A DNA stretch of 32,000 bases from Prochlorococcus sp. MIT 0801. GTDB taxonomy: Bacteria; Cyanobacteriota; Cyanobacteriia; PCC-6307; Cyanobiaceae. Position numbers and translations under genes: made by a program. Where the stretch lies: NCBI RefSeq assembly GCF_000757865.1, contig NZ_CP007754.1, positions 1,800,001-1,832,000 of the forward strand, written 5' to 3'. Positions 2,916 through 30,742 of the stretch are shown here, one piece after another. Numbering within the stretch: position 1 is the first letter of the stretch; each line of letters begins with the position of its first letter. The notes beneath the pieces are model-generated. The model searched no databases. It saw only the letters and a list, made by a program, of their open reading frames with translations, and was not told the origin of the DNA.

Positions 2916-2925
2916 ATTTCTCAGA

Positions 2926-4152: not shown

Positions 4153-4156
4153 CTTT

Positions 4157-4687: not shown

Positions 4688-4691
4688 ATTA

Positions 4692-6583: not shown

Positions 6584-6585
6584 AA

Positions 6586-14658: not shown

Positions 14659-15260
14659 TCTGGAATTGTGTCTAAGTAAAGGGGATTTGCAGTTTAGCTG
14701 CGGTTACCGAGTAACCAGCTGAAGTGGATCCCGGAGAATATAGGAAGCTGTAAGAAAGCCTGTAGAAATAATTCAACAGACACTCCTCACGAGAATCTCG
14801 CCAAACTATAAACTATTAACCGACAAGCACAATAGATAAAATGTACACTCAAGGAAATCAAGACAATTAAATCAATCAAGTTCTATTTAAAAATTTGAAC
14901 AATGATTTACCAAAAACTATGTAATATCATACTCAAAAAATCACTTGTGAAGTCTCCAAATAGCTTTCCATCACTAACTTCTTCAATTATTTCCAAAAGA
15001 ATAAAACTTGAGCAAAACAAGCGAATCAAATAAGCCATCCTCAATCCCAAAGGACCTAACACTGTTGTGTGCAGAACATAAAGTGCACACCTAGAAAATG
15101 CGATTTATAGAAACTTTTTAAAGAAAAGTAGCCAAAAGCACGAAATAATTACTTGAATTTTTCAATAAAATCAAAAATATTCTCTTGAGAATATGCGCAT
15201 ACCAATGTTAAATATTGAGTAAATATTTTAAATAATTTTATAAGGCGTATTCGAAAGGCG

Positions 15261-16226
15261 ATGACAAAAGTGCCAAGTAAATCTTGTTTTGTAATTGGTT
15301 GTACTGGCCAAGATGGGTCTATGATGTGTAGATCGTTGCTGAAAAAAGGTTTTGAAGTTGTAGGTCTTACCAGAAAAATAAATTATTCAAGCGTAAATTT
15401 TAAAAAATTAGATATTCGAGGTAAATTCAAGGTCATAACACTTGATTTAAAAAATCATGAGCAATACATAAATTTAATCGAAGAGTATCAACCATCTGAA
15501 ATTTATAATCTATCTGCACAATCCTCGGTTGGATTGTCTTTTGAGAAACCATTAGAGACCTATCAAAGTATCATCAATGCAACCTACAATTTATTAGAAA
15601 TTTGCCGAAAAGCGAATTATGAAGGAAGAATTTTCTTTGCAGGAAGCAGTGAGATATATGGAAATGTGAAAGGAAAAGCTAAAATCAATGATCCAAAAGT
15701 CCCAATAAACCCTTACGCTTTAGCAAAGATATCTAGTATGAATTTTGTTAAATTTTATCGAGAAATATACAAACTAAATTGTTTAACAGGAGTACTCTTT
15801 AATCATGAATCAACTTTACGAGCTGAAAGTTTTGTAACTCAAAAAATTATTACAGGGGCAATTAAAAGTTTAAGGGATCAACAATATAAATTCAAAGTTG
15901 GTAATGTTGACATTATCAGAGACTGGGGAGACGCTGAAGAATATGTAGAGGCCATGCAAATTATAACAAGAGCAACAATATTAAAAGACCAAATAATATG
16001 CACAGGAAAAGGTACCAGCCTTCGAGAATTTATTAATAAAGTATTTAGTCAACTTGCCTTACAATGGGAAAAGCATGTAGAAATAGAACCCAACCTATTT
16101 CGAAAATCAGATATCCAAAGAAGTGTTGGGAATCCTGAAGATTGCTTCAACGATACAGGATGGAAATCTTCAGTTGATATTGATTCGTTAATCAAAAAAC
16201 TTATAAAAGAGAAAATAAATAAATAA
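15261..16226 (+). CDS. gmd: GDP-mannose 4,6-dehydratase-family SDR
   Basis: 321-aa ORF with VIGCTGQDGSMMCRSLL (GxxGxxG), NLSAQSSVGLSFEKP, GSSEIYG, PYALAK (YxxxK) and the GMD-type block GVLFNHESTLRAESFVTQKI. It is somewhat shorter than typical Gmd proteins, so substrate specificity is uncertain. Confidence 0.75.
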   Translation: MTKVPSKSCFVIGCTGQDGSMMCRSLLKKGFEVVGLTRKINYSSVNFKKLDIRGKFKVITLDLKNHEQYINLIEEYQPSEIYNLSAQSSVGLSFEKPLETYQSIINATYNLLEICRKANYEGRIFFAGSSEIYGNVKGKAKINDPKVPINPYALAKISSMNFVKFYREIYKLNCLTGVLFNHESTLRAESFVTQKIITGAIKSLRDQQYKFKVGNVDIIRDWGDAEEYVEAMQIITRATILKDQIICTGKGTSLREFINKVFSQLALQWEKHVEIEPNLFRKSDIQRSVGNPEDCFNDTGWKSSVDIDSLIKKLIKEKINK

Positions 16227-16228
16227 TT

Positions 16229-19200
16229 TTAATTATTCAATTCAATTCCTCTAATCATTCCTTGTAATCGTGGACCAAGTTTACTAAACCTATGTTGAGA
16301 CCTCCAAGCGTGTTGATATTCATTTAAAGACTTTTCTTTCTTTGATATCTTTTTATTAAGATACCAATTTTGTATACCCTCAGCTAATAAATCCTCAGTA
16401 ACACCAGGTAAAACATCAACGACTTTAAATACATCAGAGAATATTGAAATAGGGGTCACTGCAACTGGTACACCGCTAGCCAAGCCATGACGAACTGAAG
16501 CACTAGAAGATTCATTAGAATTTTGATAGGGGAAAACAATTAAGTCAGATTCTGAGAGTTTTGATAGTGTTGATTGATCAGAGTCATATGTAGTATCTAA
16601 AATAATTAGGTTAGAAAGTGAATACTGATCAATTAAATCTAGAAGTTCAAGATAGTATTCTTTGGAACAAATAGAACTATGAATAGCAGCATATAATCTT
16701 AAATTAACAACAAATTCTCGATCTTTAAGAATTTTTATTGCTTTAATTAACTCACTAAATCCTTTATTTGGCAAACAATAACCATATGCAGAAATCAATC
16801 TTTCAGTTTTATCATTCATTATTTGAGTAAATATACGTCTTTTAAAGGATGTGATATTAGAATTATTTTCAAAATAAAAGTCCAAAATTCCATGTGGAAA
16901 AATTCCAATATTTGATAAAAGGTCAAGATCCTTAAGCCTATTTAAATCTTCTGGAGTATGTACCAAGATACGAGAACACTTTTGAAAGGCTTTTTTTAGA
17001 TTTGATAGTTTTTTAGACGGATTATCTACAGGATCTTTTGTTGAATGCATCATCATAATTATATTCACCTTATTATTCGTTAATCGATTAATAAATAAAC
17101 ATAAAGAATCAAAATTATAAAATCCATAATTAAATTGAACTACAACGGTTGTTAATTTCTCGTGAATAATTGTTTCGTATAACTCCTCTAATTCATCTGG
17201 AACTGAACCCTCTAAATTCCAGCATCTTTTAACTATTAAATTGTCATCAGCAATTAGATCCTCTTGCTTAGGAGATAAGATAATTTTAAAATCAGAGATA
17301 TATTCAATAAGATGTTTAGAATATGCCGCAATACCACATCTTGAATTCCATGTCGATACCCAACCAATCCTGGATTCACAAAATGATGATCCAAGAGCTA
17401 AATTCCTTACAAAGCTTATATTTTTCTTAGCAACATTCGACCATTTATATTCCTTAATAGTCTGTTTTGCAGCCTTTAATTTAGAAGTTATCACTTCAGG
17501 AGTTTCACAATAAACTTCTTTCAATAATTCAGTTAAATGACTTTCAGATGGCTTAGCCCAAACTGATGATGTTAAATTAAAATGCGTATTTGCATATTCA
17601 AAAGAGAAATCTAATAACCATGAATTTAAATGATTACAAAAATCAATCTGACCACCCCAACCATTGGTTATAACTGGTAGACCTAAATGCATAGCTTCAG
17701 CAATTAAAAGCCCAAAACCTTCTCCGTAACTTGGTGCTACAAGACAATTTGATGAATTAAATAGCGAAGACATTTGAATATCTGAAAAATCACTATCTAT
17801 TATCAAGACATGAGGATATGAAGGATTTGATAGAATTAATTGTTCAAGAATCTGACTTACATTGTTATGTGGATTAGGAGCAGTTTTAATAATTAGGGAT
17901 ACATCATCTTTAGAACTAAAAGCATTACCATACGCTGTTAAAAGTATTGATATTCCCTTCCTTGGAAAACAAGATGAAACATGCAGAAATTTGAATTTTT
18001 TTGCATCTAAACTAAGAATATCCTTATTCGGCTTTATATGATTAACGCCTAAACTAGTAACTTTAATTGGCAATTGACAACCATTATCAATTAATATCTG
18101 CTTTACTTGTGAAGACATTACAGATAATCCATCTAGATTTTTGTTAAATTCTTCTATCCATTCAGATGGGAATTCAGTTTCCTCCCAACCATATGAATGT
18201 AAAATATTAATTCCATTATCAAAGTCATTGACTCTTGGAGGGTAAAGGTTTCTACTAATAATTGTTGGTTGATAATTATTAATCCTAGAATCTTCATGCA
18301 ATTTTAAAATATCCTTATGACTTTCTAAAAATTTTAAATCTGGTGCATAATCACCTGGTCCTTCCGTTGATAGAATCTTAACGTCAACATCTAAAGCTTT
18401 TAGAGCTAATGCAAATTGTCGATTAAGTATTGCAAGACTATAAGTGGAATCATAGGGTCCCTCTACTCTCCAGACTAATTTATCAGCCAACCATTTATGT
18501 TCACATTTTATATACCTAATTTGATTTTTTATTAATACTAATGAAGAACTTATTTGTTTTAATAAACAATCTGATTTTGAAGCATCATCGATAGAATTAA
18601 CTATAGTCTTAATTCTTTTAATAAATTGAGTATAACTCATAAGTTTATTGTTATGACTCTTATTTTTATTTATAACCATACTTTTTTCAAAAGCATTAAT
18701 ACAGTTTTCTGCTGTTTGTTTCCATGAAAATAATTTTGATCGATTCTTTGAGTTATTAGCTAGCAGTTCTCTAAATCGTTCATCAACTAAAGCTTTTTCT
18801 AATGTTTTCGCTATATCAGCAACATCAAATGGGTCGAAAAGAGCATTTGCATCTCCAACTATTTCAGGAATACTACTTGTGTTTGAACCAATAACAGGAG
18901 CACCACAGGTCATAGCCTCTAAAACAGGAAGGCCAAAGCCCTCATGAAGAGAAGGGAAAATAAACAAACTACAATTTCGATATAAACGAGATAATTGCTC
19001 ATCAGATACATACCCTAAAATTTTTACTAATTTTGAACTTAAATGATTACTTGCTATCCAATCTTTTAATTGCTCTAATTCTTCAGGTAAAAGATAACCA
19101 ACAAAAACTAGTTTATATTTGTTTCTTAATTCCTCAGATAAAAGAGCATAAGCTTCAATCAAACGACATAAATTCTTGCGAGGATCACCTGCTCCAGAAT

Positions 19201-19882
19201 ATAAAATATATTCATAATCTATTTTCAAAGGATCATCTTTAATATTAGACACTTTGGAAGCAAATAGGTTCTCATCACAAGCAGAAGATATATTGAAAAG
19301 ACATTCTTGATCAAATGCTAAATATTGTTCGGCTTCACTTTTAGAGGATTCTGAAATAGATAATAAAGAATCAAATTTAGAAAGACTAGCCAATTTACGG
19401 TGATAAAATTCAGAGAAAAGTGGATTTTTTTCTAAATATAATTTAGGATTAATAAGTGGTATTAAATCATAAATTATTGAAATTATAGAGGGTGTTATAT
19501 ATAATTCTGAAAGATCAGTTAAGCAATTATCAAGGAAGCCCTCAAAAAAACTAGTTATAAAAAAAATATCTGCATCCAATAATGAAATTGCATAACTTCT
19601 TAATTCACTAGCAATAAATGAATTATTCCCTTGCTGGCCAAATTTTTTATTAATAGGGCCTGGAGAGTACCATTGAAAATATTTTACGTTCATTTTATCT
19701 GATGTAATTTCCTCTTTGAAATCTTCTCTCATATCTCTTAGAGAATTATTAGCAAATAAAATATACTCATGTTGATTTTGATATTTAATCAAAGCCTTGA
19801 TTAAGGCCATGGAATAGCGTCCAATCCCTCGTAATCTACTGGCCTCTGATTGACATCCTTGTAAATCAATTATTATCCTCAT
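16229..19882 (-). CDS. Trimodular GT-B (GT4-like) glycosyltransferase, 1217 aa
   Basis: Three successive GT4-type C-terminal nucleotide-sugar binding blocks are present: EGFGLPVLEAMTCGAPVIGSN (module 1), GEGFGLLIAEAMHLGLPVITN (module 2) and SSSASVRHGLASGVPVAVT (module 3, degenerate). The N-terminal MRIIIDLQGCQ...RGIGRYS is typical of polymerising mannosyl-/rhamnosyl-transferases of the WbdA type. Confidence 0.8.
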   Translation of the reverse strand: MRIIIDLQGCQSEASRLRGIGRYSMALIKALIKYQNQHEYILFANNSLRDMREDFKEEITSDKMNVKYFQWYSPGPINKKFGQQGNNSFIASELRSYAISLLDADIFFITSFFEGFLDNCLTDLSELYITPSIISIIYDLIPLINPKLYLEKNPLFSEFYHRKLASLSKFDSLLSISESSKSEAEQYLAFDQECLFNISSACDENLFASKVSNIKDDPLKIDYEYILYSGAGDPRKNLCRLIEAYALLSEELRNKYKLVFVGYLLPEELEQLKDWIASNHLSSKLVKILGYVSDEQLSRLYRNCSLFIFPSLHEGFGLPVLEAMTCGAPVIGSNTSSIPEIVGDANALFDPFDVADIAKTLEKALVDERFRELLANNSKNRSKLFSWKQTAENCINAFEKSMVINKNKSHNNKLMSYTQFIKRIKTIVNSIDDASKSDCLLKQISSSLVLIKNQIRYIKCEHKWLADKLVWRVEGPYDSTYSLAILNRQFALALKALDVDVKILSTEGPGDYAPDLKFLESHKDILKLHEDSRINNYQPTIISRNLYPPRVNDFDNGINILHSYGWEETEFPSEWIEEFNKNLDGLSVMSSQVKQILIDNGCQLPIKVTSLGVNHIKPNKDILSLDAKKFKFLHVSSCFPRKGISILLTAYGNAFSSKDDVSLIIKTAPNPHNNVSQILEQLILSNPSYPHVLIIDSDFSDIQMSSLFNSSNCLVAPSYGEGFGLLIAEAMHLGLPVITNGWGGQIDFCNHLNSWLLDFSFEYANTHFNLTSSVWAKPSESHLTELLKEVYCETPEVITSKLKAAKQTIKEYKWSNVAKKNISFVRNLALGSSFCESRIGWVSTWNSRCGIAAYSKHLIEYISDFKIILSPKQEDLIADDNLIVKRCWNLEGSVPDELEELYETIIHEKLTTVVVQFNYGFYNFDSLCLFINRLTNNKVNIIMMMHSTKDPVDNPSKKLSNLKKAFQKCSRILVHTPEDLNRLKDLDLLSNIGIFPHGILDFYFENNSNITSFKRRIFTQIMNDKTERLISAYGYCLPNKGFSELIKAIKILKDREFVVNLRLYAAIHSSICSKEYYLELLDLIDQYSLSNLIILDTTYDSDQSTLSKLSESDLIVFPYQNSNESSSASVRHGLASGVPVAVTPISIFSDVFKVVDVLPGVTEDLLAEGIQNWYLNKKISKKEKSLNEYQHAWRSQHRFSKLGPRLQGMIRGIELNN

Positions 19883-19903: not shown

Positions 19904-21088
19904 TTATTTAAAATCTTGATAAGTTTTTTTAGCTTCAGAGGAGGACTCATAATATCCTGATAGCATATCATTCAAAGTATGTGAATTATGATTAATCTTA
20001 TCTATCTGTATGATTTTAGAAAGAATTTTTCTTGCTAGAACATCCTGACCAAGAAGTTTAGAGATTTTAGAAATAAATTTATAGAATACTATTGTATGAG
20101 AATCTGATAAAACTGATGTAATCATTCTAAAGCTAAAATGTATAAAATAAACAACAAAATTCCTGATATTTAGCAAGATAAATTTAATATTCGCTTTTAT
20201 TTTTCTAATTAATTTAAAAGGTAGTGAATTAAATATTTTATTTTGTCTAAATAGCAAGAAATTAATTGTATTTTTCAAGTTATTAATTTCATTATCATAT
20301 TGTTTATTCATTAATTTTATACTCTGCTCAATATTAAATATCTTTTCATCAAATAAGCTATAAGCTTGATCCGTACTAATAGCGATATTTAATTTGTCTT
20401 TCCAAAAAGATTCATGAGCAAAAAGATGAGAATTATATTCATTATTAATAGTTCCGATAAACACAACATCTTGAGCGACAGAACCAATCACCTCTAATAA
20501 AGAAAAAGATTTTGGATTATACAACGGGCCCCCGTTAATCAAATAATATTTGACCTTTTCAAAACCAATTACATTTAATCTATGTACGAAACTATCAGGA
20601 TTAATATGATTAATATGTGTAGGATCTAAATAAAAATTTTTTGTAGAAACTTTAATATTATCAATACTTGGAGTTTCTAAAATTAAAACCCCGCCAGGTT
20701 CTAAAAGTCTTTGGCATTCTCTCATTAGAACTTCTAATTTATTATTATCTAAATGTTCTATTAAATGAAAAGCACTAATAATTTGAAATGAACTTTGATT
20801 ATATCTTTTTAATTCTATTAAAGCATCCTCTTTAACAACATTTAATTTTAAGCCTTTACAAAATTCATACATAGAATCATTGCTTTCTATACCTAGAGAG
20901 CTAATACCTTTATCATTACATATCTCAAGCCATTCCCCCCTGCCACAGCCTAAATCTAATAATTTGGGAGAATCAAAGTTATCCAATATATATTCTAATA
21001 AGCCATAGTAGTTATATAAACGTTTTTTTATTTTATCTCTAGAGCCTCTAAATTTATTTTCAAATTTTAAATAAGATTCCTTGTCCAT
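19904..21088 (-). CDS. Class I SAM-dependent methyltransferase with a ~170-aa C-terminal extension (heptad-like, then amphipathic/hydrophobic)
   Basis: 394-aa ORF. Motif I is LLDLGCGRGEWLE and the post-I region is LLEPGGVLILETP. The C-terminal part contains an Asn/Lys/Ile-rich stretch (EKIFNIEQSIKLMNKQYDNEINNLKNTINFLL), then a hydrophobic segment (FILLNIRNFVVYFIHFSFRMITSVL). It lies 21 nt upstream of the trimodular glycosyltransferase. Confidence 0.75.
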   Translation of the reverse strand: MDKESYLKFENKFRGSRDKIKKRLYNYYGLLEYILDNFDSPKLLDLGCGRGEWLEICNDKGISSLGIESNDSMYEFCKGLKLNVVKEDALIELKRYNQSSFQIISAFHLIEHLDNNKLEVLMRECQRLLEPGGVLILETPSIDNIKVSTKNFYLDPTHINHINPDSFVHRLNVIGFEKVKYYLINGGPLYNPKSFSLLEVIGSVAQDVVFIGTINNEYNSHLFAHESFWKDKLNIAISTDQAYSLFDEKIFNIEQSIKLMNKQYDNEINNLKNTINFLLFRQNKIFNSLPFKLIRKIKANIKFILLNIRNFVVYFIHFSFRMITSVLSDSHTIVFYKFISKISKLLGQDVLARKILSKIIQIDKINHNSHTLNDMLSGYYESSSEAKKTYQDFK

Positions 21089-21209: not shown

Positions 21210-22262
21210 TTAATCCTGAGCTATCCATTGCATATTTTTTAGGTACCAATCAACAGTTTTTTCAATTCCTATTTTAAAATTGTATTTAGGTCTCCATCCT
21301 AATTCCCTTTTTAGCTTTGATGAATCTATAGCATACCTGTAGTCATGACCTAATCTATCTTCTACTGATTTTACGAGGTTTTTATACGGATAATGATTAG
21401 GTTTTTTATGATCTAAAATATCACATATCATATTAATAACTTCTTTATTTGAATATTCCTCTCCTGCTCCAATACAAAAACGTTGTCCTGCATATGCTTT
21501 TTCTGCAATTAACAATAGAGCACTAATATGATCATCAACAAATAACCAATCTCTAATATTTTCTCCTTGACCAAACATAGGAATATCTCGATTATTTAAT
21601 GCTCTGGATATTACCAAAGGTATTAATTTCTCCGGGAATTGTCGAGGTCCATAATTATTACAACAATTAGTGATAATAGAAGGGAGTCCATAAGTATGAA
21701 ACCATGAATTCACTAAATGATCACTTCCAGCTTTGGATGCTGAATATGGACTTCTTGGACAATATTGTGAAGTTTCAGAAAAATACCCAGTAACTCCAAG
21801 CTCACCAAAAACTTCGTCAGTACTTATGTGTATTAATTTAAAGCAAAGTTGTCTATCTTCAGGTAATGTTTCATAATGATTTCTTAGTGAATTAAGTAAA
21901 TTATAAGTGCCTACAATATTACTGTTTATAAACTCATTTGGACCTTTTATAGAACGATCAACATGACTTTCAGCAGCTAAATGAAATACTAAATCCGGAT
22001 CTGAATATTTTATAGCATCTGTTGTCTTATTTGCGTCTACAAGATCTACCTCTAACAATTCATAATTCTGTTCGATAAGACTTTTACTGTGAACAAAAAA
22101 ATCGTCTATATTATATTTTGAGCTAGCATAAGATAATTTATCAAGATTATATATTTTAAAGTTTCTATTATTAATTAATTTACTGATGAGATTGGAACCT
22201 ATAAAGCCAGCGCCTCCAGTCACTAGGATTTTTCTTTGCTTCCCAAGAAATGATGATTGCAT
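21210..22262 (-). CDS. rfbB: dTDP-glucose 4,6-dehydratase
   Basis: 350-aa SDR with KILVTGGAGFIGSNL, HLAAESHVDRSI, HISTDEVFG and YSASKAGSDHLV, all canonical RmlB blocks. Its ATG overlaps the rfbD TAA (TAATG at 22260-22264). Confidence 0.92.
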   Translation of the reverse strand: MQSSFLGKQRKILVTGGAGFIGSNLISKLINNRNFKIYNLDKLSYASSKYNIDDFFVHSKSLIEQNYELLEVDLVDANKTTDAIKYSDPDLVFHLAAESHVDRSIKGPNEFINSNIVGTYNLLNSLRNHYETLPEDRQLCFKLIHISTDEVFGELGVTGYFSETSQYCPRSPYSASKAGSDHLVNSWFHTYGLPSIITNCCNNYGPRQFPEKLIPLVISRALNNRDIPMFGQGENIRDWLFVDDHISALLLIAEKAYAGQRFCIGAGEEYSNKEVINMICDILDHKKPNHYPYKNLVKSVEDRLGHDYRYAIDSSKLKRELGWRPKYNFKIGIEKTVDWYLKNMQWIAQD

Positions 22263-23173
22263 TAGCTAATATTACTATTCTTAATTTCATTTAATACAGC
22301 GCGTAAACAAATTCGCCAGTGTTGAGGCTCTATATTCAATTGACTAAGCATAAGAGAAGAATCCAAAGCAGAAAAAGCTGGACGTAAAGCCAAAGTTTCA
22401 TATGCATCGGACTTAATTGGAAGAATTTTTGTATTTAAATTAAATAACCCAATATCATTTCCTATCTCCAGAACCGCGTATGCAAAATCATACCAACTAG
22501 CTATTCCAGCATCTGAAAAATGAATAAGATTAGATGACTTAAGACCTTCTTCCATAGATTTAATCAAACTCCAGCAAAATTTTGCTAAAGAAATACTACT
22601 TGTTGGAGTACTAACTTGATCAGAAACTATTTTTAGAGTTTTCTTAAGCTTCATTAAATTAATAATTTTATTAACGAAATTATTCCCCCAAGCAGAATAC
22701 AGCCAGCTAGTTCGAATTATCTTCACCTGCTCAGTGGATGACAAAATTTCCAATATTTTTTCTTCTCCTTGAACTTTGCTTAAGCCATATGTATTCAAAG
22801 GGTTAACAAGGTCAGTAGTTTTATAAGGCAAGGATTGATTTCCATCAAATACATAATCTGTACTGAAATGAATTAATTTACCACCTATTTTTTTTAAAGC
22901 TTTAGCAAATACAGCTGGTGCATCTGCATTAATTTTATAAGTCAATTTCTCTTGTGACTCTGCAAGATCAACAGCTGTATATGCAGCTGCATTTATAAGA
23001 TAATCTGGTTGATATTCCAAAATAATTTTCTCACATTGATTAGGAATTGAGAGATCTAATTCTTCTCTAGAGGTCATCTTCAAATCTACAGTTTTACCCG
23101 CAATATCCACTGGTAAAGTTTCAATTAAACTCAAACCTAATTGACCATTTTTTCCTACTAATAAGACCTTCAT
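22262..23173 (-). CDS. rfbD: dTDP-4-dehydrorhamnose reductase
   Basis: 303-aa ORF with MKVLLVGKNGQLG, INAAAYTAVDLAE, HFSTDYVFDG and YGLSKVQGE (YxxxK). It lies between rfbC and rfbB. Confidence 0.9.
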   Translation of the reverse strand: MKVLLVGKNGQLGLSLIETLPVDIAGKTVDLKMTSREELDLSIPNQCEKIILEYQPDYLINAAAYTAVDLAESQEKLTYKINADAPAVFAKALKKIGGKLIHFSTDYVFDGNQSLPYKTTDLVNPLNTYGLSKVQGEEKILEILSSTEQVKIIRTSWLYSAWGNNFVNKIINLMKLKKTLKIVSDQVSTPTSSISLAKFCWSLIKSMEEGLKSSNLIHFSDAGIASWYDFAYAVLEIGNDIGLFNLNTKILPIKSDAYETLALRPAFSALDSSLMLSQLNIEPQHWRICLRAVLNEIKNSNIS

Positions 23174-23207: not shown

Positions 23208-23783
23208 TTAGAAATACAATAAATCATGAATTTCATCTAAACATTTTCCATCATTATCTTTAGATGAAATTATAGGTAAGTCTGAAATTAATGGCCACTT
23301 AATAGAAATAGTTGGATCATTCCATCTAAGAGTAATTTCAGCATCTTGGTCCCAATAGTCAGAAACTTTATACATTACCTCAGCTTCACTGCTCATAGTC
23401 AGAAAGCCATGAGCAAATCCACTTGGTAACCATAGTTGTTTTCGATTAGTACTACTTAAAGTAACCCCAAACCAATTACCAAAAGTGGAGGAATTAATTC
23501 TAAGATCAACTCCAACATCGTAAATCTCACCTTGCAAACATCTAATCAATTTACCTTGAGAATGAGGCGCAACTTGAAAATGTAAACCTCGCAATACATT
23601 AAAAGTGGATAGAGAATGATTATCCTGAACAAAATTTATATCTTGGCTCAATAGATTATTAAAATTCCTTTTGTTCCAACTTTCGGTAAAAAAACCTCTT
23701 TCATCTTGAAAGATTTCTGAGACAAACATCAAAGGTCCTTTAAAATTTTCACCTTTAATATTTTTTAAATAATAGCTCTTCAT
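23208..23783 (-). CDS. rfbC: dTDP-4-dehydrorhamnose 3,5-epimerase
   Basis: 191-aa ORF with FQDERGFFTESW, LRGLHFQ, KLIRCLQGEIYDVGVDLR, LPSGFAHGF and VMYKVSDYW, all canonical RmlC blocks. Confidence 0.92.
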   Translation of the reverse strand: MKSYYLKNIKGENFKGPLMFVSEIFQDERGFFTESWNKRNFNNLLSQDINFVQDNHSLSTFNVLRGLHFQVAPHSQGKLIRCLQGEIYDVGVDLRINSSTFGNWFGVTLSSTNRKQLWLPSGFAHGFLTMSSEAEVMYKVSDYWDQDAEITLRWNDPTISIKWPLISDLPIISSKDNDGKCLDEIHDLLYF

Positions 23784-23810: not shown

Positions 23811-24695
23811 TCAATCTTTATCACTTTCATTAGATAATAACTGATTTAAATATTCACCATAACCGCTTTTTGATTGTAATTGAGCAATTTGGTAAATCTT
23901 TTTATTACTTATCCAACCCTGACGCCATGCAACCTCTTCAGGGCAACCTACTTTTAATCCTTGTCGTCTCTCAAGAGTCCGAATAAAAGCTCCTGCTTCA
24001 TGCAAGGAGTCAAAGGTACCCGTATCTAACCAAGCCATACCTCTACCCATGATTTGCACTTTAAGTTTATTTTCTTGCAAATACTGCCGATTTATATCAG
24101 TAATTTCCAATTCCCCTCTTTCAGAGGGTGTAACGGTTTTCGCTTTTTCAATAACAGTTTTATCAAAAAAATACAAACCTGTAATTGCAAATCTACTTTT
24201 TGGTTTCACTGGTTTTTCTTCAATCGATAGGGCCAAACCATTCTGATCAAATTCCACAACACCATAGCGATGTGGGTCTGATACTCGATATGCAAAAACA
24301 GTCGCAGAATCTTTATTTTTATCAGCTTTTCTCAATTGGTCTCTGAGATCAGAGCCATAAAATAAATTATCACCCAAAATTAAAGCACAAGGAGAGTCTT
24401 TTAAGAAATCAGTAGCTATTAAGAGTGCTTGAGCTAAGCCTTGAGGCTCTGGTTGAATTTCATATGTTATTGATATTCCAAATGAACTTCCATCTCCAAG
24501 CAATCGCTGAAAAGACGACTTATCAATTGGAGTAGTAATTATTAAAATTTCATTTATCCCTGCCAACATAAGAGTTGTTAGAGGGTAATAAATCATTGGT
24601 TTATCATAAATTGGTAAAAGCTGTTTACTAATTGATTTTGTAATGGGGCTTAAACGTGAACCAGTTCCACCAGCAAGAATGATCCCTTTCCTCAT
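23811..24695 (-). CDS. rfbA: Glucose-1-phosphate thymidylyltransferase
   Basis: 294-aa ORF with MRKGIILAGGTGSRLSPIT...SKQLLPIYDKPMIYYPL, ALILGDNLFYG and GRGMAWLDTGT, all canonical RmlA blocks. Confidence 0.93.
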   Translation of the reverse strand: MRKGIILAGGTGSRLSPITKSISKQLLPIYDKPMIYYPLTTLMLAGINEILIITTPIDKSSFQRLLGDGSSFGISITYEIQPEPQGLAQALLIATDFLKDSPCALILGDNLFYGSDLRDQLRKADKNKDSATVFAYRVSDPHRYGVVEFDQNGLALSIEEKPVKPKSRFAITGLYFFDKTVIEKAKTVTPSERGELEITDINRQYLQENKLKVQIMGRGMAWLDTGTFDSLHEAGAFIRTLERRQGLKVGCPEEVAWRQGWISNKKIYQIAQLQSKSGYGEYLNQLLSNESDKD

Positions 24696-24731: not shown

Positions 24732-25181
24732 ATGGTAATTCATATCATAAAACATGCTGAAGGTGCTCCAGGTTTACGGTTACTAGGACTGGGACCAGGT
24801 TTACTGCCTAGCGATGGGTTGAAAAAGCTACAGAACTTATTTAATAGAAATGCATTTTGGGCCAAAGATAGAGATTTAAAATCTATTCGCAAAATGCTAG
24901 CGAATAGTTCAGGTGTGATTAGTATTTGGAAAAACAAAGAGATAATTGGCTTTGGAAGAGTAACTACTGATTGTTCATATAGAGCGGTAATTTGGGATGT
25001 TATTGTAGAAAAACAATACCAAGGCAGCGGAATAGGAAAACTTGTTATTGCAGAAATACTAAAGATGAAAAAACTAAGACAAATTTGTAAAATATATGTA
25101 ATGACAACAAATCAAAAAGACTTTTATCTTCAAATGGGCTTTAAATTGGAAGAGAATCAATATTTAATGATTAAAGAATAG
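24732..25181 (+). CDS. GNAT-family N-acetyltransferase
   Basis: 149-aa ORF with GNAT motif A (VIVEKQYQGSGIGKLVIAEIL) and a C-terminal FYLQMGF. Substrate unknown. Confidence 0.75.
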   Translation: MVIHIIKHAEGAPGLRLLGLGPGLLPSDGLKKLQNLFNRNAFWAKDRDLKSIRKMLANSSGVISIWKNKEIIGFGRVTTDCSYRAVIWDVIVEKQYQGSGIGKLVIAEILKMKKLRQICKIYVMTTNQKDFYLQMGFKLEENQYLMIKE

Positions 25182-25182
25182 A

Positions 25183-27435
25183 CTAAATATGATTTGAATA
25201 AATTTGTATAAGTAAAGATTCATAATCCTGAACAAAACTATCAGAATTAAAGAACTTTGAGTTATCATTTAGATCATACAACTTATTTTTGATTTCATCA
25301 AAAAACTCGTAATTAGTGGCAAGATTAAATGCTAATTCTTCATATTCAGATAAACTTCTAGCAATTAACTTATTAAGTCCTAAAGCATTTAATATACTTG
25401 ACGACATTCTAGATGTATAACTTTTTCCTTCATAGGCAATAATTGGTGTACCAGCTTTAAGAGCAATAAAAGCTGTAGCTCCAGCAGAGTAATTAAAAGT
25501 GTCTAAAAACAAATCTGCATTTTGATGTCGAATTATATGATCATTTAATGGTAATGTTTCAGCAAAAACTAGTCTTTTAGGATCTATTCCTCTAATTTTG
25601 GCTGAATTTAAAAGATTTAATTTTGTTTCTTCTGAAGACTCATATAACCACAATATAGATTCATCAACCCTTTTTAACAAATTCATCCAAATATCAAACT
25701 CAATAGGGGATATTTTGTAACTAGAGTTAAAACAAGTAAAAACAAATTTATTATTAAAATCAACATCTTTATTTAATTCAGGAGATTTACAAATTCTTGG
25801 TAATTGATCATCGTTACACTGATATGTAAGAGGTAAATAAACAACTTTCTCGGAATAGTACTTCTTCATATTATTAGGTATTAAATATTGATCAGCAATT
25901 ATATAATCTATACAATCGGAACCAGTGCTTCCTGGATAGCCTAAATAGGAAATTTGAATAGGAGCTATTCTATGAGCAAAAATAATAAAGTTGTTACCTT
26001 TTGTATAACCCATTAAATCAATTGCTATATCGATATCATGACTTCGAATCAATTCAATCTGTTCCGAATTAGACAAATTTTCTATCGGAATATATTTAGC
26101 TTTCAAATTTTTTATTCGAGAAGTATAAGAATCAGTCTTGTGATTATCTAATGAATATAAATACAACTCAAACTTACTACTATCATGAAGTTCTAAAGTT
26201 CGTATCAATAATTGAATTACTGGATGATCATTAAAATTAGCTGAAATATAACCCAAACGTATTATTTTTTTTTGCTTAATGATAATACTTTTTTCCTCAA
26301 CATCGAAGTAAAACTTAAATAACCTTTTAGCTCTAATTAAATCAGTTTTGGGATCATCATACATAGCTAACATCCCCAAATGAACAATAGGTTTATCGCC
26401 TTTAATTCCTATCCTATTTGCTATGACTAAATCATTTTCAAACTCTTCCCAGTCACATAATCTATGTTTTAAATGAATCAAATCTGCATGAGCCTTATAA
26501 AAATATTTATCAAGTAAAATAGCTTTTTTAAGATAGTCTATAGACTTTAAGAAATCACCTTTCTCTTTAAAGGCATTAGCTAGATTATACAAATAAATTG
26601 GATTATTAGAATCAAGAATAACTACTTTTTTTAATAAATTTATAGCCATATTTGTATTACATGTATTAATATATAATACCGCTAAGCTATTTAAACTATT
26701 GACATGATTAGGATTATTTTCTAAAGCTTTTTTATAATAAAATTTTGCTTTATTAATGTTTCCAAGTTCCTGTAAACATGTACCTATATTACTTAAAGAA
26801 TCAGCATGAAAACTATCTATTTCAATAACCTGCTGATAAAAATTTAAAGCTTTTTTGAATCGCCTTAAAGAAAAATTTAAATTACCTAAATTAAATAATG
26901 CTGGTATAAATTTCGGATTAATTAAAATAGAATTTGTATAGAACTTTATTGCCTTATCATAATCTTTTATCATCACATATGCAATACCTAAATTATAATT
27001 TATTTGTACGTTATCATTATCAATAGAAAGTGCTTTAGTTAAAATCTGTATCGCCTTCAATGGATCCTTACTCATCATCAAATTAGCAAGGTTAGTTAAA
27101 GCAGGAAGATAATTCTTATTGATATTTAATGCCTGATTAAAATAATATTCTGCTTGAACAAAATCTCCCTCTGCCTTAAAAATATAACCAAGACAATTAT
27201 AACCCTCAGTATAATTAGAACAAATAGAAATAGAGTTTAGAAATAAAGTTTTTGCTTCCGTAAAGTTATTTAAAAGTAATTCCACATAAGCAAGACGAGC
27301 TATATAAAAATGATTATCAGGATCTATCTTTAATAATTTATTATAAATCAACTTAGCATCATGAAAGCTTGACTCTTTAATATACTTTTCAGATAAATTC
27401 TGTAAGGTTTTGATCTCTTCTTTATTGATTTTCAT
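25183..27435 (-). CDS. TPR-repeat protein fused to a GT41 (O-GlcNAc transferase / SPINDLY-like) glycosyltransferase domain, paralog A
   Basis: 750-aa ORF. The N-terminal ~330 aa are consecutive 34-aa TPR units (A..Y/F...L.I.P.. periodicity). The C-terminal half has OGT catalytic-domain blocks: IRLGYISANFNDHPV, DIAIDLMGYTKGN, FAHRIAPIQISYLGYPGSTGSDCIDYIIAD, YYSEKVVYLP and HQNADLFLDTFNYSAGATA. Confidence 0.85.
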   Translation of the reverse strand: MKINKEEIKTLQNLSEKYIKESSFHDAKLIYNKLLKIDPDNHFYIARLAYVELLLNNFTEAKTLFLNSISICSNYTEGYNCLGYIFKAEGDFVQAEYYFNQALNINKNYLPALTNLANLMMSKDPLKAIQILTKALSIDNDNVQINYNLGIAYVMIKDYDKAIKFYTNSILINPKFIPALFNLGNLNFSLRRFKKALNFYQQVIEIDSFHADSLSNIGTCLQELGNINKAKFYYKKALENNPNHVNSLNSLAVLYINTCNTNMAINLLKKVVILDSNNPIYLYNLANAFKEKGDFLKSIDYLKKAILLDKYFYKAHADLIHLKHRLCDWEEFENDLVIANRIGIKGDKPIVHLGMLAMYDDPKTDLIRAKRLFKFYFDVEEKSIIIKQKKIIRLGYISANFNDHPVIQLLIRTLELHDSSKFELYLYSLDNHKTDSYTSRIKNLKAKYIPIENLSNSEQIELIRSHDIDIAIDLMGYTKGNNFIIFAHRIAPIQISYLGYPGSTGSDCIDYIIADQYLIPNNMKKYYSEKVVYLPLTYQCNDDQLPRICKSPELNKDVDFNNKFVFTCFNSSYKISPIEFDIWMNLLKRVDESILWLYESSEETKLNLLNSAKIRGIDPKRLVFAETLPLNDHIIRHQNADLFLDTFNYSAGATAFIALKAGTPIIAYEGKSYTSRMSSSILNALGLNKLIARSLSEYEELAFNLATNYEFFDEIKNKLYDLNDNSKFFNSDSFVQDYESLLIQIYSNHI

Positions 27436-27465
27436 AATGCCATAATGATATATTTTATAAGATTT

Positions 27466-29616
27466 TTAAGTATTAAAATGTTTAATATATAGTTTTTTAT
27501 ATAAATTATCTAGTTCTTTTGTAAATAATTGAGAATTAAAAATAGATGAATCCTCTAATGACATCTTTAATTTACTTTTAACATGATGCAAATAATCTTT
27601 ATCTCTTGCTAATTTCAAAGCTAACTGCTTATAGTCTTTTAGGTTGTAAGTTATTAACTCAGTCATATCTATAGCTTGTAATAAGCTACTACTCATTCGT
27701 GCGGTATAACTATTTCCACATAGAGTCACAATTGGAACTCCAGAAGCAAGAGATAGCCATGCTGTTGCACCAGAAGAGTAGCAAAAGGTATCTAGAAAAA
27801 CATCTGCATTTTGGTGTCTATTTAAATGACTTTCAATTGAAACTTTTTTCGAAAATATCAATCGTTCTGCATTAAGCCCATTATCTTCAGCATAAAGAAT
27901 TAAATTTTTTTTTGATAGTTCATTAGATGCATAAATCCACAAAATACTCTCCTCAAAAGTTAATAATATTTCTATCCATACATCAAAAATAGTTTTACTT
28001 ATCTTGTAATTGGCATTAAAAGAAGTAAAAATCACTTTATCCTTAGGGAAGTCTTCTAGAGTATCCTTTTTAATACCTTTGGGAATAAGTCGATCGTCAT
28101 GAGCTAAATAAGTATTCGGAAGATAAATTACTTCTTCTGAATAAAATCTTTGATGTGATTCAGGTATTAAAAATCTATCTGCAATTAAATAATCTATAGC
28201 ATCCGAGCCAGTAGTTCCTGGATAGCCCAAATATGAAATTTGGATTGGAGCTAACCTATAGGAAAATAATGCAAATCTAGTATCTGTTGTAAATCCCATT
28301 AAATCAATCGCTATATCTATAGAATCCTCTCTAACCTGACGAAGTACTTTTAGATCATCTAATCCCTTAATATCAATATATTTATCTACATTATTTCTAA
28401 TTTCCCAAGTAAATTCATCTTCCTCAAAAGTAGAATACGAATAAGCGAATACCTCAAACTCATCTCTATTATGAAGTTTTAAAATATATCTAATTAATAA
28501 AGTTACAGGATGATTATTAAAATTTGCAGAGAAATAAGCAATTCTAATCTTAGACTTTTTAATTTTTTTAATTTCTTTCGATTCTCTTTTAAAATTTTGA
28601 AGAAAGAAATTCTTTGCTCGAGACAAACTTAAATTAGGTTTGTCCTGAAAAGACATAAATAGCATTGGGGATATAGCATTATTACCAGAGTCAATATTTT
28701 CTAACAAGGAAATATCCTGAGAGTAGTCAGACCAATCACAAATATGAGCTTTAGATCTTAATAAATAAATTATTAAAGATTTTTGTAAGGGATTAATGGA
28801 AAGTACTTGTTGATAAAGTGTAATAGCTTTTACATAGCATTTATTACGAAATTCAATATGTCCAAGATTAATTAGTGCTGATTCAAAATTAGGATTAATT
28901 AAAAGAACTTCTTCAAAAAGTAATTTCGCCTTAGGATAAAATCCCATCAACCCATATGTAATTGCCAAACCATGTAATGCTTTATAATTATCTTTCTGTA
29001 TATTTATCACTTTTTCAAAATAATTTATTGCTAACTCAAATTTAAATTGATTTCTAAATAAATTCCCCAATCCTATAATGGAATCAAGATGATTTGGTCG
29101 TATTAATAAAGCTTTTTGATAATTCTCTATTGCTAAACTATACTGATTTTGCAACTTAAAAGCTCTACCTAAAAATGAATAAGCTTTGAAAGAATTAGGT
29201 TCTAATTCAAGAACTTTATTAAAATACCTGATACTATTTACAATATCTCCAGAATCTAAATAAATTAAAGCTAGTGTTTGATAATAATTTGAACATGATG
29301 GTTTAACTCGAATTGACTTAAAAGCATAATCAAAAGCCTCATAATAATTTTTTAATTCCTTATAAGCTATAGCTAAATTATTTAAAGCATCTGAATCTTT
29401 TGGCTGGATAAATAATGCTTTTTTTAAGAAAAAAACCGCACGCTTCAATTCCTGTTTCATCAAACATATGGCACCTAAATTCGCGTAAATAACGTTATTC
29501 TCAATAGCATCATCAATACAATCTAAATATACTTTTTCTGCAAGATCTATTTGACCAATTTGAAGGTAATCTAAGGCCTTTTGGAGTCTTTCTTTAGTAG
29601 TTTTCCTTGAGCTCAT
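27466..29616 (-). CDS. TPR-repeat protein fused to a GT41 (O-GlcNAc transferase / SPINDLY-like) glycosyltransferase domain, paralog B
   Basis: 716-aa ORF with the same architecture and blocks as paralog A: IRIAYFSANFNNHPV, DIAIDLMGFTTDT, FSYRLAPIQISYLGYPGTTGSDAIDYLIAD, FYSEEVIYLP and HQNADVFLDTFCYSSGATA. It starts 22 nt downstream of the tRNA-Gly 3' end. Confidence 0.85.
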   Translation of the reverse strand: MSSRKTTKERLQKALDYLQIGQIDLAEKVYLDCIDDAIENNVIYANLGAICLMKQELKRAVFFLKKALFIQPKDSDALNNLAIAYKELKNYYEAFDYAFKSIRVKPSCSNYYQTLALIYLDSGDIVNSIRYFNKVLELEPNSFKAYSFLGRAFKLQNQYSLAIENYQKALLIRPNHLDSIIGLGNLFRNQFKFELAINYFEKVINIQKDNYKALHGLAITYGLMGFYPKAKLLFEEVLLINPNFESALINLGHIEFRNKCYVKAITLYQQVLSINPLQKSLIIYLLRSKAHICDWSDYSQDISLLENIDSGNNAISPMLFMSFQDKPNLSLSRAKNFFLQNFKRESKEIKKIKKSKIRIAYFSANFNNHPVTLLIRYILKLHNRDEFEVFAYSYSTFEEDEFTWEIRNNVDKYIDIKGLDDLKVLRQVREDSIDIAIDLMGFTTDTRFALFSYRLAPIQISYLGYPGTTGSDAIDYLIADRFLIPESHQRFYSEEVIYLPNTYLAHDDRLIPKGIKKDTLEDFPKDKVIFTSFNANYKISKTIFDVWIEILLTFEESILWIYASNELSKKNLILYAEDNGLNAERLIFSKKVSIESHLNRHQNADVFLDTFCYSSGATAWLSLASGVPIVTLCGNSYTARMSSSLLQAIDMTELITYNLKDYKQLALKLARDKDYLHHVKSKLKMSLEDSSIFNSQLFTKELDNLYKKLYIKHFNT

Positions 29617-29638: not shown

Positions 29639-29710
29639 AGCGGATGAAGAGATTCGAACTCTCGACATTCTCCTTGGCAAGGAGATGCTCTACCACTGAG
29701 CTACATCCGC
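29639..29710 (-). tRNA. trnG: tRNA-Gly (anticodon GCC), CCA not encoded
   Basis: The minus strand reads GCGGATGTAGCTCAGTGGTAGAGCATCTCCTTGCCAAGGAGAATGTCGAGAGTTCGAATCTCTTCATCCGCT and folds into a cloverleaf. Acceptor stem is GCGGATG/CATCCGC, D stem GCTC/GAGC, anticodon stem TCTCC/GGAGA with loop TTGCCAA, and T stem GAGAG/CTCTT (one G-U pair) with loop TTCGAAT. The discriminator is U, as expected for bacterial tRNA-Gly. Confidence 0.95.
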
Positions 29711-29793: not shown

Positions 29794-30270
29794 TTAATCC
29801 AACGCCTTCATCAATGACGCCATCTCTAGGGCTTGTAAAGCATAACTCCATCCAAGATTATTCTTAATTCCTGCTCTCTCTAAGGCCTGCTGCATAGTAT
29901 CTGTTGTTAAAACCCCAAAAATAATAGGCAATCCTGTTTCTCTGGAGACAGTAGCAATGCCTTTACTTGCCTCGGATACCACAACATCAAAATGAGGGGT
30001 ATCGCCGCGAATAACTGCTCCCAAAGTAATTACAACATCATAATTAGCTTTTCGAGCAAGTTCTTGCGAAATAATTGGTAGCTCAAATGCGCCTGGAACC
30101 CAAGCCACATCCAACTGATTACTGGACTCTGAAATATTAATTCCATGCCTAGAAAGGCAATCTAAACAGCCGCTTAAAAGCTTAGTAGTTATAAGATCAT
30201 TAAATCTAGCTACCACAATAGCTATTTTAAAAGAAGATGCTTTCTCAAAGGTACCCTCAATTGTCGCCAT
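29794..30270 (-). CDS. ribH: 6,7-dimethyl-8-ribityllumazine synthase
   Basis: 158-aa ORF with [38 protein letters not shown] and [11 protein letters not shown], all canonical RibH blocks. Confidence 0.93.
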
Positions 30271-30375: not shown

Positions 30376-30591
30376 TTACACACTCATTTGATGAGTGATG
30401 TATTCGCCAACTAAGGCCTGAAGGAGGACCAAATGAAACCAAACTCCTGCAAGGATCTCGATCTTTTTAATATTGGGATTTCTATTGTCCTCTGGGTTGG
30501 TTTGGGTCATGTAAAAAACAGGAACACCAATTACCAAAAGCAAAGAAGAGAACAAAAGTGCGTTAGCAACGACTGAATTAATAGCCAACAT
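30376..30591 (-). CDS. psbZ: Photosystem II reaction-centre protein Z
   Basis: Two predicted TM helices and the PsbZ-like block LLLVIGVPVFY. The track ORF (to 30618) begins at a TTG (plus-strand caa at 30616-30618). The first ATG is at 30591..30589 and gives a 71-aa product, closer to the ~62-aa PsbZ norm. The ribH/mutS neighbourhood is consistent with picocyanobacteria. Confidence 0.7.
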   Translation of the reverse strand: MLAINSVVANALLFSSLLLVIGVPVFYMTQTNPEDNRNPNIKKIEILAGVWFHLVLLQALVGEYITHQMSV

Positions 30592-30742
30592 AGTTGAAGC
30601 TGCAGAAAAATTTCTCAATATTCAATAATTCTCCCATGTAAGTGTTTTGTTTGAGTTGTTCATCTTCATATTTGTAGCGAGGCTTCACATGCAAAAAAAA
30701 TTAATTCTTCTAATATGCATTGATTAAACAGTGAGCAATGAA

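Follow-up and report, generated by a model that had tools for sequence, protein, structure and literature searches.

Which molecules are modified by a pair of tandem glycosyltransferases at the edge of a Prochlorococcus cell-surface island, and with which sugar? The question is raised by a 32,000-nucleotide stretch of the genome of Prochlorococcus sp. MIT 0801 (contig NZ_CP007754.1, positions 1,800,001 to 1,832,000; hereafter the window, with coordinates counted from its first nucleotide), in which two adjacent genes, here called GT41-A and GT41-B, encode proteins that join tetratricopeptide repeats (TPR) to a catalytic domain of glycosyltransferase (GT) family 41. An original prediction, made from the sequence alone, had proposed them as cytoplasmic protein glycosyltransferases, with a giant surface protein encoded in the same window as their substrate. 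We conclude that both are soluble cytoplasmic TPR-GT41 glycosyltransferases of the OGT/SPINDLY/XcOGT type, a family assignment that we regard as firm, and we tentatively propose, with a probability of about 45%, that they O-glycosylate an exported protein with a small sugar and do so as a strain-variable cassette. The two genes and the parts discussed below are located as follows, all on the minus strand:

27466 to 29616: GT41-B, 716 amino acids, soluble TPR and GT41 protein (open reading frame (ORF), PF13844, match to human OGT)
28741 to 29616: TPR region of GT41-B, about residues 1 to 292
27469 to 28569: GT41 catalytic domain of GT41-B, about residues 350 to 716
28510 to 28512, 28003 to 28005 and 27778 to 27780: His H369, catalytic Lys K538 and gatekeeper Tyr Y613 of GT41-B
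25183 to 27435: GT41-A, 750 amino acids, soluble protein with nine TPRs and a GT41 domain (ORF, PF13844, AlphaFold2, Foldseek)
26461 to 27435: TPRs of GT41-A, residues 1 to 325
25186 to 26283: GT41 catalytic domain of GT41-A, residues 385 to 750
26224 to 26226, 25714 to 25716 and 25489 to 25491: His H404, catalytic Lys K574 and gatekeeper Tyr Y649 of GT41-A

The two ORFs lie in the same orientation, 30 nucleotides apart, with the lengths and coordinates that had been predicted, and their TPR-GT41 identity was confirmed by profile searches. Against a Pfam cut-off of 25, Glyco_transf_41 (PF13844) matches GT41-A with 236.1 bits (E 7.7e-70) and GT41-B with 244.7 bits (E 1.9e-72), in each case in two stretches and accompanied by many TPR matches. 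Among PDB sequences, phmmer matches both proteins to human OGT (E 1.7e-94 for GT41-A and 2.1e-100 for GT41-B), followed by SPINDLY, Drosophila OGT, XcOGT and TtOGT, and the OGT-like motifs to which attention had been drawn are present in both (HRIAPIQISYLGYPGSTGSDCIDYIIAD...YSEKVVYLP in GT41-A, YRLAPIQISYLGYPGTTGSDAIDYLIAD...YSEEVIYLP in GT41-B). GT41-A was modeled with AlphaFold2 from an alignment of 52 sequences (pLDDT 94.7, pTM 0.87); in the model, nine TPR helix pairs lead into a GT-B domain made up of two Rossmann-like lobes. Foldseek ranks SPINDLY first for this model (E 4e-40) and the OGTs next, the best geometric match being XcOGT (target TM-score 0.91, root-mean-square deviation 2.7 Å). 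GT41-B, which is 35% identical to GT41-A over the full length, would share the TPR and GT-B architecture, and two gaps of about 34 residues in its alignment with GT41-A point to about eight TPRs; the earlier count of 9-10 repeats roughly holds for GT41-A but is slightly high for GT41-B. The intervening domain of metazoan OGT (about 120 amino acids) was not found in GT41-A, where residues 549 to 563 correspond to 746 to 871 of the human OGT chain and the model has a short linker between the catalytic lobes. Neither protein scores as a member of the HMW1C/NGT group, since the NCBIfam model NF049992 gives 29.7 bits for GT41-A and 26 bits for GT41-B against a cut-off of 1000; to our knowledge, HMW1C has no TPR domain. 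We found no transmembrane segment, signal-peptide-like N-terminus, lipid-carrier or membrane-association feature in either protein and, because they have neither a transmembrane segment nor a signal peptide, we place both in the cytoplasm, as had been expected. Two other affiliations were considered and rejected: PADLOC yielded generic TPR and methyltransferase matches only, which does not support membership of a defence system, and 50,697 phage records gave matches at the TPR level only, which does not support a phage origin of the pair.

Are the two proteins likely to be active, and what could their donor pocket accommodate? Residues were mapped on a HMMER alignment to the human OGT chain 7ntf, whose numbering we take to be the usual human OGT numbering + 40, an offset anchored on the motifs FNQLYK and GNHPT. 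The catalytic lysine (K842 in human OGT, K665 in SPINDLY) corresponds to K574 in GT41-A and K538 in GT41-B and is Lys in 220 of 223 bacterial homologues; H558 corresponds to H404 and H369, respectively, and is His in 219 of the 223. The equivalents of G654, H901, R904 and T922 are also retained in both proteins. The pair thus keeps the catalytic Lys and His whose loss in an alignment to OGT the original prediction had named as counter-evidence, and both enzymes are probably catalytically competent. At the gatekeeper position (C917 in human OGT, Y744 in SPINDLY) both carry a tyrosine. It has been argued from the SPINDLY structure that a Tyr or Phe at this position shrinks the pocket and disfavours GlcNAc (PMC9715652) and, because the gatekeeper is Tyr, the sugar transferred by the pair is probably smaller than GlcNAc. 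The UDP-binding loop also departs from that of human OGT, NGHTT..D being replaced by S[AS]GAT..[IL], which corresponds to the substitutions H920 to G, T921 to A and D925 to I or L (human OGT numbering); the same loop variant occurs in about 30 of 225 retrieved homologues. Neither a small gatekeeper residue nor an NGHTT..D loop is found in either protein, which sets the pair apart from O-GlcNAc transferases in the strict sense.

In the mechanism that we propose, the TPR superhelix would hold an extended polypeptide, as in OGT, SPINDLY and FlmG, and the inverting GT-B domain would transfer a single sugar to Ser/Thr before export. Our leading guess for the sugar is rhamnose, with dTDP-L-rhamnose supplied by the adjacent rmlACDB genes; the target would probably be an exported or surface protein, for which the giant RTX-like neighbour is the leading candidate. 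That both enzymes have been kept, apparently without redundancy, suggests that they serve two acceptor classes, use two sugars or act as a heterodimer. Ecologically, they would provide strain-specific variation of the cell surface, for instance against phage adsorption, and phage pressure on surface genes is the most likely selective setting.

Several characterized enzymes can be compared with the pair. The closest in architecture are the bacterial TPR-GT41 proteins XcOGT (XCC0866) and TtOGT, which likewise combine TPRs and GT41 without the metazoan intervening domain, conserve the Lys and His, and have a Tyr gatekeeper (Y463 and Y419, respectively; PMC9715652). They share about 24% identity with the pair, from which they differ in having the HTT..D instead of the GAT..I/L loop; the solved XcOGT chain (568 amino acids) has a shorter N-terminal region than GT41-A and GT41-B with their 8-9 TPRs, and the MIT 0801 proteins, unlike XcOGT and TtOGT, form a retained pair within an island of surface-glycan genes. 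Arabidopsis SPINDLY, a GT41 protein O-fucosyltransferase, has the same long TPR superhelix and GT-B domain, with K665 as catalytic Lys, and its gatekeeper Y744, a Tyr as in the pair, excludes GlcNAc and fits a 6-deoxyhexose (PMC9715652). SPINDLY is, however, a eukaryotic nucleocytoplasmic protein with a regulatory role and only 22% identity to the pair, and it uses GDP-fucose, whereas the only synthesis pathway that can be assigned to the genes beside the pair is that of dTDP-rhamnose. Likewise cyanobacterial, Ogt of Synechococcus elongatus and OgtA of Nostoc punctiforme are cytoplasmic TPR-GT41 proteins with an essential catalytic Lys (K445 in the S. elongatus enzyme) and an exported target; the pilin PilA depends on them for its glycosylation, and its gene is often a neighbour of ogt (PMC9306852), which lends the idea of a protein acceptor some support. 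The S. elongatus enzyme uses UDP-GlcNAc in vitro (PMC9306852), and the window has no pilin gene. Caulobacter FlmG resembles the pair in the working principle proposed here: it is soluble and cytoplasmic, binds a secreted substrate, flagellin, through its TPR domain and, prior to export, glycosylates Ser/Thr with its C-terminal GT-B domain (PMC7591256); it differs in this substrate and in its sugar, pseudaminic acid. HMW1C/NGT enzymes share the GT41 fold and are described as glycosylating, in the cytoplasm, a large secreted adhesin encoded nearby (PMC4550697), but their linkage is to the Asn of N-x-S/T sequons, whereas the giant protein shows no sequon enrichment.

The pair occupies a well-defined position in the window. 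From the core flank inwards, the order is psbZ, ribH, tRNA-Gly, GT41-B, GT41-A, a gene for a GNAT acetyltransferase on the opposite strand, rmlA, rmlC, rmlD and rmlB, and further on a methyltransferase, a triple GT4 protein, an epimerase on the opposite strand, the giant protein, and a GT2 with an amino-deoxy-sugar pathway. The genes that frame the pair and those that recur in related loci are:

30376 to 30618 and 29794 to 30270, minus strand: psbZ/ycf9 and ribH, core flank (Pfam, tblastn)
29639 to 29710, minus strand: tRNA-Gly (GCC), core-side edge of the variable slot (ARAGORN; Rfam RF00005, 74.7 bits)
24732 to 25181, plus strand: GNAT acetyltransferase, conserved inner edge of the slot (Pfam)
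19904 to 21088, minus strand: methyltransferase dependent on S-adenosylmethionine, 394 amino acids, conserved backbone (Pfam)
16229 to 19882, minus strand: triple GT4 protein, 1217 amino acids with three Glycos_transf_1 stretches, conserved but fast-evolving backbone (Pfam)
15261 to 16226, plus strand: NAD-dependent sugar epimerase/dehydratase of the GDP-mannose-dehydratase family, conserved backbone position (Pfam)

The tRNA gene lies upstream of GT41-B, whose start codon follows 22 nucleotides past the tRNA 3' end, so that the predicted position beside a tRNA was accurate. The GNAT gene is convergent with GT41-A (stop codons 1 nucleotide apart) and divergent from rmlA (36 nucleotides between start codons). 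The composition is atypical, with a guanine and cytosine (GC) content of 0.25-0.28, whereas the core flank has 0.33-0.36. A search of the window for further copies of the tRNA 3' end, in which up to 3 mismatches were allowed, found none, no flanking direct repeats were found, Pfam revealed no integrase among its ORFs, a promoter and terminator scan of the window performed no better than on shuffled sequence, and an Rfam scan returned nothing beyond tRNA-Gly.

To see how this arrangement varies among strains, related loci (numbered L below) were collected, each with 10-kb flanks, with the triple GT4 gene as probe; a single-sequence scan of genome contigs was empty, and an alignment-based scan gave 8 loci from species-representative genomes and 80 metagenome loci, to which three complete genomes were added. 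All window genes were mapped on these loci by tblastn. The triple GT4 protein has more than 1000 homologues, and the Prochlorococcus-like loci share a backbone that runs psbZ, ribH, the slot, GNAT, rmlACDB (present or absent), methyltransferase, triple GT4, epimerase and the N-terminus of the giant protein. GNAT adjoins the slot wherever the region is visible, and the 394-amino-acid methyltransferase is found in most loci where its region is. Between strains, ribH and psbZ are 82-100% identical in all related loci, whereas identity is 42-51% for the triple GT4 in most Prochlorococcus-like loci (60% in L002 and 93% in L055), 34-46% in most loci for the methyltransferase, 43-57% for GNAT and 45-54% for the epimerase; set against ribH and psbZ, this divergence of syntenic surface genes looks like diversifying selection. 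The slot itself was visible in 25 loci, including the window, and holds a true GT41 in 3, nothing in 10 and other cassettes in 12. At least six alternative states were seen, among the following contents:

empty: 10 loci
GT41 pair: the window and L002
single GT41, reversed: L019 (same lineage as L003-5)
further GT41 type: L096 (found through the list of GT41-A homologues and outside the triple-GT4 counts)
TPR proteins without PF13844: L022, L033 and L034
497-amino-acid GT4: L040, L051, L056, L098 and L099
ORF without a Pfam match: L081 (a similar ORF stands beside GNAT in L025)
DUF4214-cadherin protein: L062, 1-2072, minus strand

The GT41 pair thus makes up a two-gene cassette, and the strain-variable slot that it fills comes right after tRNA-Gly, on the border of a cell-surface island of Prochlorococcus. 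Neither this variability nor the rmlACDB cassette had been remarked on in the original prediction. The locus recalls genomic island 4 (Coleman 2006 / Avrani 2011), where the same kind of strain-specific, highly divergent surface genes stand beside a tRNA and where, as part of a hypervariable island, such genes bear most of the phage-resistance mutations of Prochlorococcus (PMC3429526); the likeness lies in content, and no integrase or att repeat was found in the window. The TPR proteins in the slots of L022 (673-4796, minus strand), L034 (464-3064, minus strand) and L033 (1-1369, minus strand) had given weak GT41-like tblastn hits (23-28%), which we rejected as TPR-only similarity since PF13844 is lacking; L087 and L027 gave hits of this weak kind too. 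In the L022 and L034 proteins, the C-terminal 300 or so amino acids weakly match GT9 (heptosyltransferase; E 2e-6 to 1e-3), so that TPRs may here be fused to a glycosyltransferase in a way not yet characterised. Among GT9-like proteins, the BAHT enzymes transfer heptose to autotransporters in the cytoplasm.

How did MIT 0801 come to have two such genes side by side? The original prediction spoke of a divergent duplication, a description that turned out to be misleading. The proteins are 45.5% identical in the catalytic domain, and among the relatives of GT41-A, GT41-B ranks only 42nd. Among 5.8 billion sequences each protein has two close relatives, at 62-69% identity, all others being at or below 42%: P0002 (64%) and P0003 (62%) are the orthologues of GT41-A, P0122 (69%) and P0029 (64%) those of GT41-B. 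A recent tandem duplication was rejected, since each paralogue has orthologues of its own at about 70% identity and the two share only 45.5% with one another; by these comparisons GT41-A and GT41-B are ancient paralogues. The metagenome scaffold L002, a second lineage, has the same pair in the same order and place; retention at about 45% mutual identity argues that the two functions are non-redundant. At the DNA level, a 160-nucleotide segment of the catalytic core, APIQISYLGYPG (25876-26035 versus 28162-28321), is 78% identical between the two genes despite 35% protein identity, which could reflect strong constraint or local gene conversion.

The same distribution bears on the idea that the enzymes are OGT-like regulators, which would attach O-GlcNAc or O-fucose to many intracellular proteins as their counterparts do in eukaryotes or as has been reported for HmwC in Yersinia. 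The overall likeness to OGT and SPINDLY is in favour of such a role, and HmwC of Y. pestis is reported to O-GlcNAcylate multiple proteins (PMC11329713). Nevertheless, the pair is strain-specific, cassette-like and rare, with its two close relatives for each protein, and a core regulator fits poorly because the island is hypervariable and the slot is empty in many strains. The gatekeeper Tyr also argues against GlcNAc (PMC9715652), and no O-GlcNAcase gene was found in the window by Pfam annotation. We consider a regulatory function very improbable.

Other GT41 genes of Prochlorococcus also lie in variable islands together with modifying enzymes. MIT 0801 itself has a third paralogue elsewhere in its genome (P0168, 647 amino acids; L097, 554-7727), flanked by a 1146-amino-acid TPR-sulfotransferase fusion and a 573-amino-acid fusion of a methyltransferase and a GT, and in L094 a methyltransferase and a sulfotransferase accompany two divergently oriented GT41 genes. 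Fusions of TPRs to modifying enzymes seem to recur in these islands.

Which sugar could the pair use? Immediately inside the GNAT gene, the window encodes a cassette for dTDP-L-rhamnose synthesis (Pfam), all on the minus strand:

23811 to 24695: rmlA
23208 to 23783: rmlC
22262 to 23173: rmlD
21210 to 22262: rmlB

Among slot-visible loci, this cassette is present in 3 of 3 with a true GT41 in the slot and in 3 of 23 without (one-sided Fisher p = 0.0077, or 0.033 when the window and L002 are counted as one lineage). Together, the gatekeeper Tyr and this co-occurrence suggest a 6-deoxyhexose donor. In L002, rmlB (14545-15596) is split into two ORFs of 183 and 167 amino acids, either by a frameshift that would make it a pseudogene or by an assembly error; if real, the split would weaken the functional link between GT41 and rhamnose.

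The association with rml can also be read in another way, in which the pair would take part in glycan synthesis and, with rmlACDB, add or extend rhamnose or another small sugar on an O-antigen- or capsule-like polymer made by the methyltransferase and the triple GT4, the TPRs docking to a polymerase complex. Besides the 3 of 3 versus 3 of 23 just given, this is favoured by the alternative slot cassettes, which are also glycosyltransferases (the 497-amino-acid GT4, the TPR-GT9-like fusions), by the window as a whole, which is an island of sugar-nucleotide and GT genes, and by the GT41 member ApHMW1C, which also makes glucose-glucose bonds (PMC9715652). Yet the characterized OGT, SPINDLY, HMW1C and SeOgt act on, or are needed for the modification of, protein acceptors (PMC9715652, PMC9306852), the TPR domains of OGT, SPINDLY and FlmG bind the protein substrate (PMC7591256), lipid-carrier or membrane-association features are absent from both proteins, and Pfam annotation of the window disclosed no wzm/wzt or flippase gene. 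On balance we find a role in polymer synthesis doubtful, although with somewhat better prospects than a regulatory one.

On the far side of the giant gene (1159-7779), the window encodes a nucleotidyltransferase, a 4,6-dehydratase, a 3,5-epimerase-like protein, a C-methyltransferase with a zinc-binding N-terminus, a DegT aminotransferase and a hexapeptide acetyltransferase, as well as a GT2. The pathway looks complete and points to an unusual sugar, which the enzymes suggest to be a C-methylated acetamido-deoxyhexose.

If the enzymes act on an exported protein, as we favour, which one could it be? The window contains one conspicuous candidate:

7846 to 14658, minus strand: giant surface-protein candidate, 2270 amino acids, possible GT41 substrate (Pfam, composition)

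The gene lies 10.5 kb from the pair, in agreement with the predicted 10 kb or so and with the predicted length. In its product, a DUF4214 region at the N-terminus is accompanied by 4 Calx-beta domains, 15 GGxGxD motifs and about 5 repeat units, each of some 235 amino acids; Cys is absent, and there are 248 acidic versus 50 basic residues. Judged by these features and by the conserved N-terminus, the family looks like S-layer-type RTX proteins as described in PMC3034196. We know of no S-layer described in Prochlorococcus. As had been stated, the protein is rich in Ser and Thr, although at 29% (Thr alone 19.5%) it falls slightly below the proposed one-third, and its 47 N-x-S/T sequons against 42 expected from composition bear out the earlier remark that their density is that of the composition. 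Across strains, identity is 44-79% over the DUF4214 region, which takes up the initial 190-220 residues, and the rest is variable. At the DNA level the gene has a GC content of 0.40-0.44 versus about 0.30 around it and near-identical internal repeats with a period of 705 nucleotides, which give rise to spurious antisense ORFs of 110 amino acids at 9305, 10010 and 10715.

In L098 (MIT 1011) and L100 (CP114778) the giant homologue is followed by an HlyD-like adaptor and a C39-ABC exporter, that is, by a type I secretion system (T1SS). We expect a giant cargo exported by a T1SS to remain unfolded in the cytoplasm, where calcium is scarce, and in that state it would be well suited to an OGT-like enzyme, since such enzymes bind peptides in extended form. 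SwmA and oscillin, two cyanobacterial RTX surface proteins, appear to be glycosylated (PMC3034196). The block formed by GNAT, methyltransferase, triple GT4, epimerase and DUF4214 giant gene is conserved in L007, L098, L099, L100 and about 20 metagenome loci, and recalls the layout around Caulobacter RsaA, where an RTX S-layer protein, its T1SS and the O-antigen genes for its anchoring stand together.

A specific pairing of GT41 with the giant protein, as originally proposed, is nevertheless unsupported by the comparison of strains. A giant homologue is present in all 22 loci where the region is visible, and in 10 of the 12 that also show the slot it stands without a GT41 within 10 kb, so that one of the two patterns named at the outset as counter-evidence, the giant gene without the pair, is what the loci show. 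Both the slot and the giant region are visible in 12 loci (the contigs of L002 and L019 end before the latter), and among these GT41 is in the slot in the window only. The giant gene is thus the constant of the locus and the GT41 pair an optional cassette, and the link between them is not specific. A GT41 missing from the locus in other strains may sit elsewhere in the genome, as the third GT41 of MIT 0801 does, and would leave room for a link with the giant protein. GT41 and giant surface-protein genes do stand side by side again in two loci: in L099 (CP114777) the giant homologue is followed immediately downstream by a TPR protein and a TPR-GT41, and in L096 (GCA_902519995) the GT41 in the slot is followed directly by a DUF4347 protein (12424-14529, plus strand) truncated by the contig end. 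What stands of the original interpretation is that these are genuine and, by their residues, apparently active TPR-GT41 enzymes; what does not is the specificity for the giant protein, which we retain as the leading candidate substrate without a specific link.

These observations give some weight to a target whose gene lies in another part of the genome; it could be some other exported protein or, by analogy with S. elongatus and Nostoc, a type IV pilin, and the slot would then be no more than an insertion hot spot. In cyanobacteria, experiments have identified PilA alone as a GT41 substrate (PMC9306852), the giant gene occurs whether or not a GT41 does, and the GT41 genes of L094, L095 and L097 lie in unrelated islands where no large repeat-protein gene was recognised within 10 kb among Pfam-annotated genes. 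Against a distant target stand the adjacency in L096 and L099, the finding that this island accounts for 2 of the 5 GT41 homologues examined for context irrespective of location, and the absence of a pilin-like gene among the annotated ORFs of at least 100 amino acids in the 32-kb window. A target outside the island seems to us unlikely, but it deserves to be taken seriously.

Several points also weigh against our own proposal that the pair uses a small sugar to O-glycosylate an exported protein. First, GT41 is missing within 10 kb of the giant gene in 10 of the 12 fully visible loci, among them the single-amplified genome (SAG) AG-315-B03, MIT 1011 and CP114778. Second, proximity within the island is weak evidence because the island gathers surface genes of all kinds. 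Third, a Tyr or Phe gatekeeper is the majority state, found in 80% of the 223 bacterial GT41 homologues; because it prevails in bacterial GT41, the Tyr is not special to the pair, and we discarded the notion that it is a peculiarity of these two proteins. Fourth, the association with rml is based on two independent GT41 lineages only, and the rml-positive loci L051, L056 and L024 lack a GT41 in the slot, with none detected next to GNAT either. Fifth, L094, L095 and L097, members of the variant-loop subclass, sit in islands without rml genes within 10 kb; because of these members, the GAT..I/L loop was rejected as a general mark of rhamnose-linked GT41. Finally, we infer both the substrate and the sugar of the pair from context and residues.

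Taken to its most specific form, the proposal would be that strains swap TPR-glycosyltransferase cassettes (pairs of GT41, GT41 alone, TPR-GT9-like fusions) beside the giant RTX-like protein, and that the GT41 pair of MIT 0801 threads this protein, still unfolded, through its TPR superhelices and O-rhamnosylates the Thr/Ser-rich repeats, using dTDP-L-rhamnose from the co-acquired rml genes, before type I secretion. We regard it as a long shot. If it were true, it would provide a GT41 enzyme with a dTDP-6-deoxyhexose donor, of which we found no earlier description, an enzyme for the glycosylation of RTX/T1SS surface proteins, none having been found named for SwmA or oscillin, and a modular means of varying the cell surface against phages.

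TPR-GT41 proteins abound in bacteria, above all in marine metagenomes, yet few have a known substrate or sugar. With an intact retained pair, an adjacent dTDP-rhamnose pathway and a giant secreted Thr-rich protein in the same island, this locus is a tractable test case for the family. Should no surface protein be modified, the pair would be just another of the strain-specific gene sets that such a hypervariable island, of a known type, carries. Should the giant protein or another surface protein be modified, this could explain the glycosylation of type-I-secreted cyanobacterial RTX surface proteins, and the most abundant marine phototroph would diversify its surface by swapping cytoplasmic protein-glycosylation cassettes.

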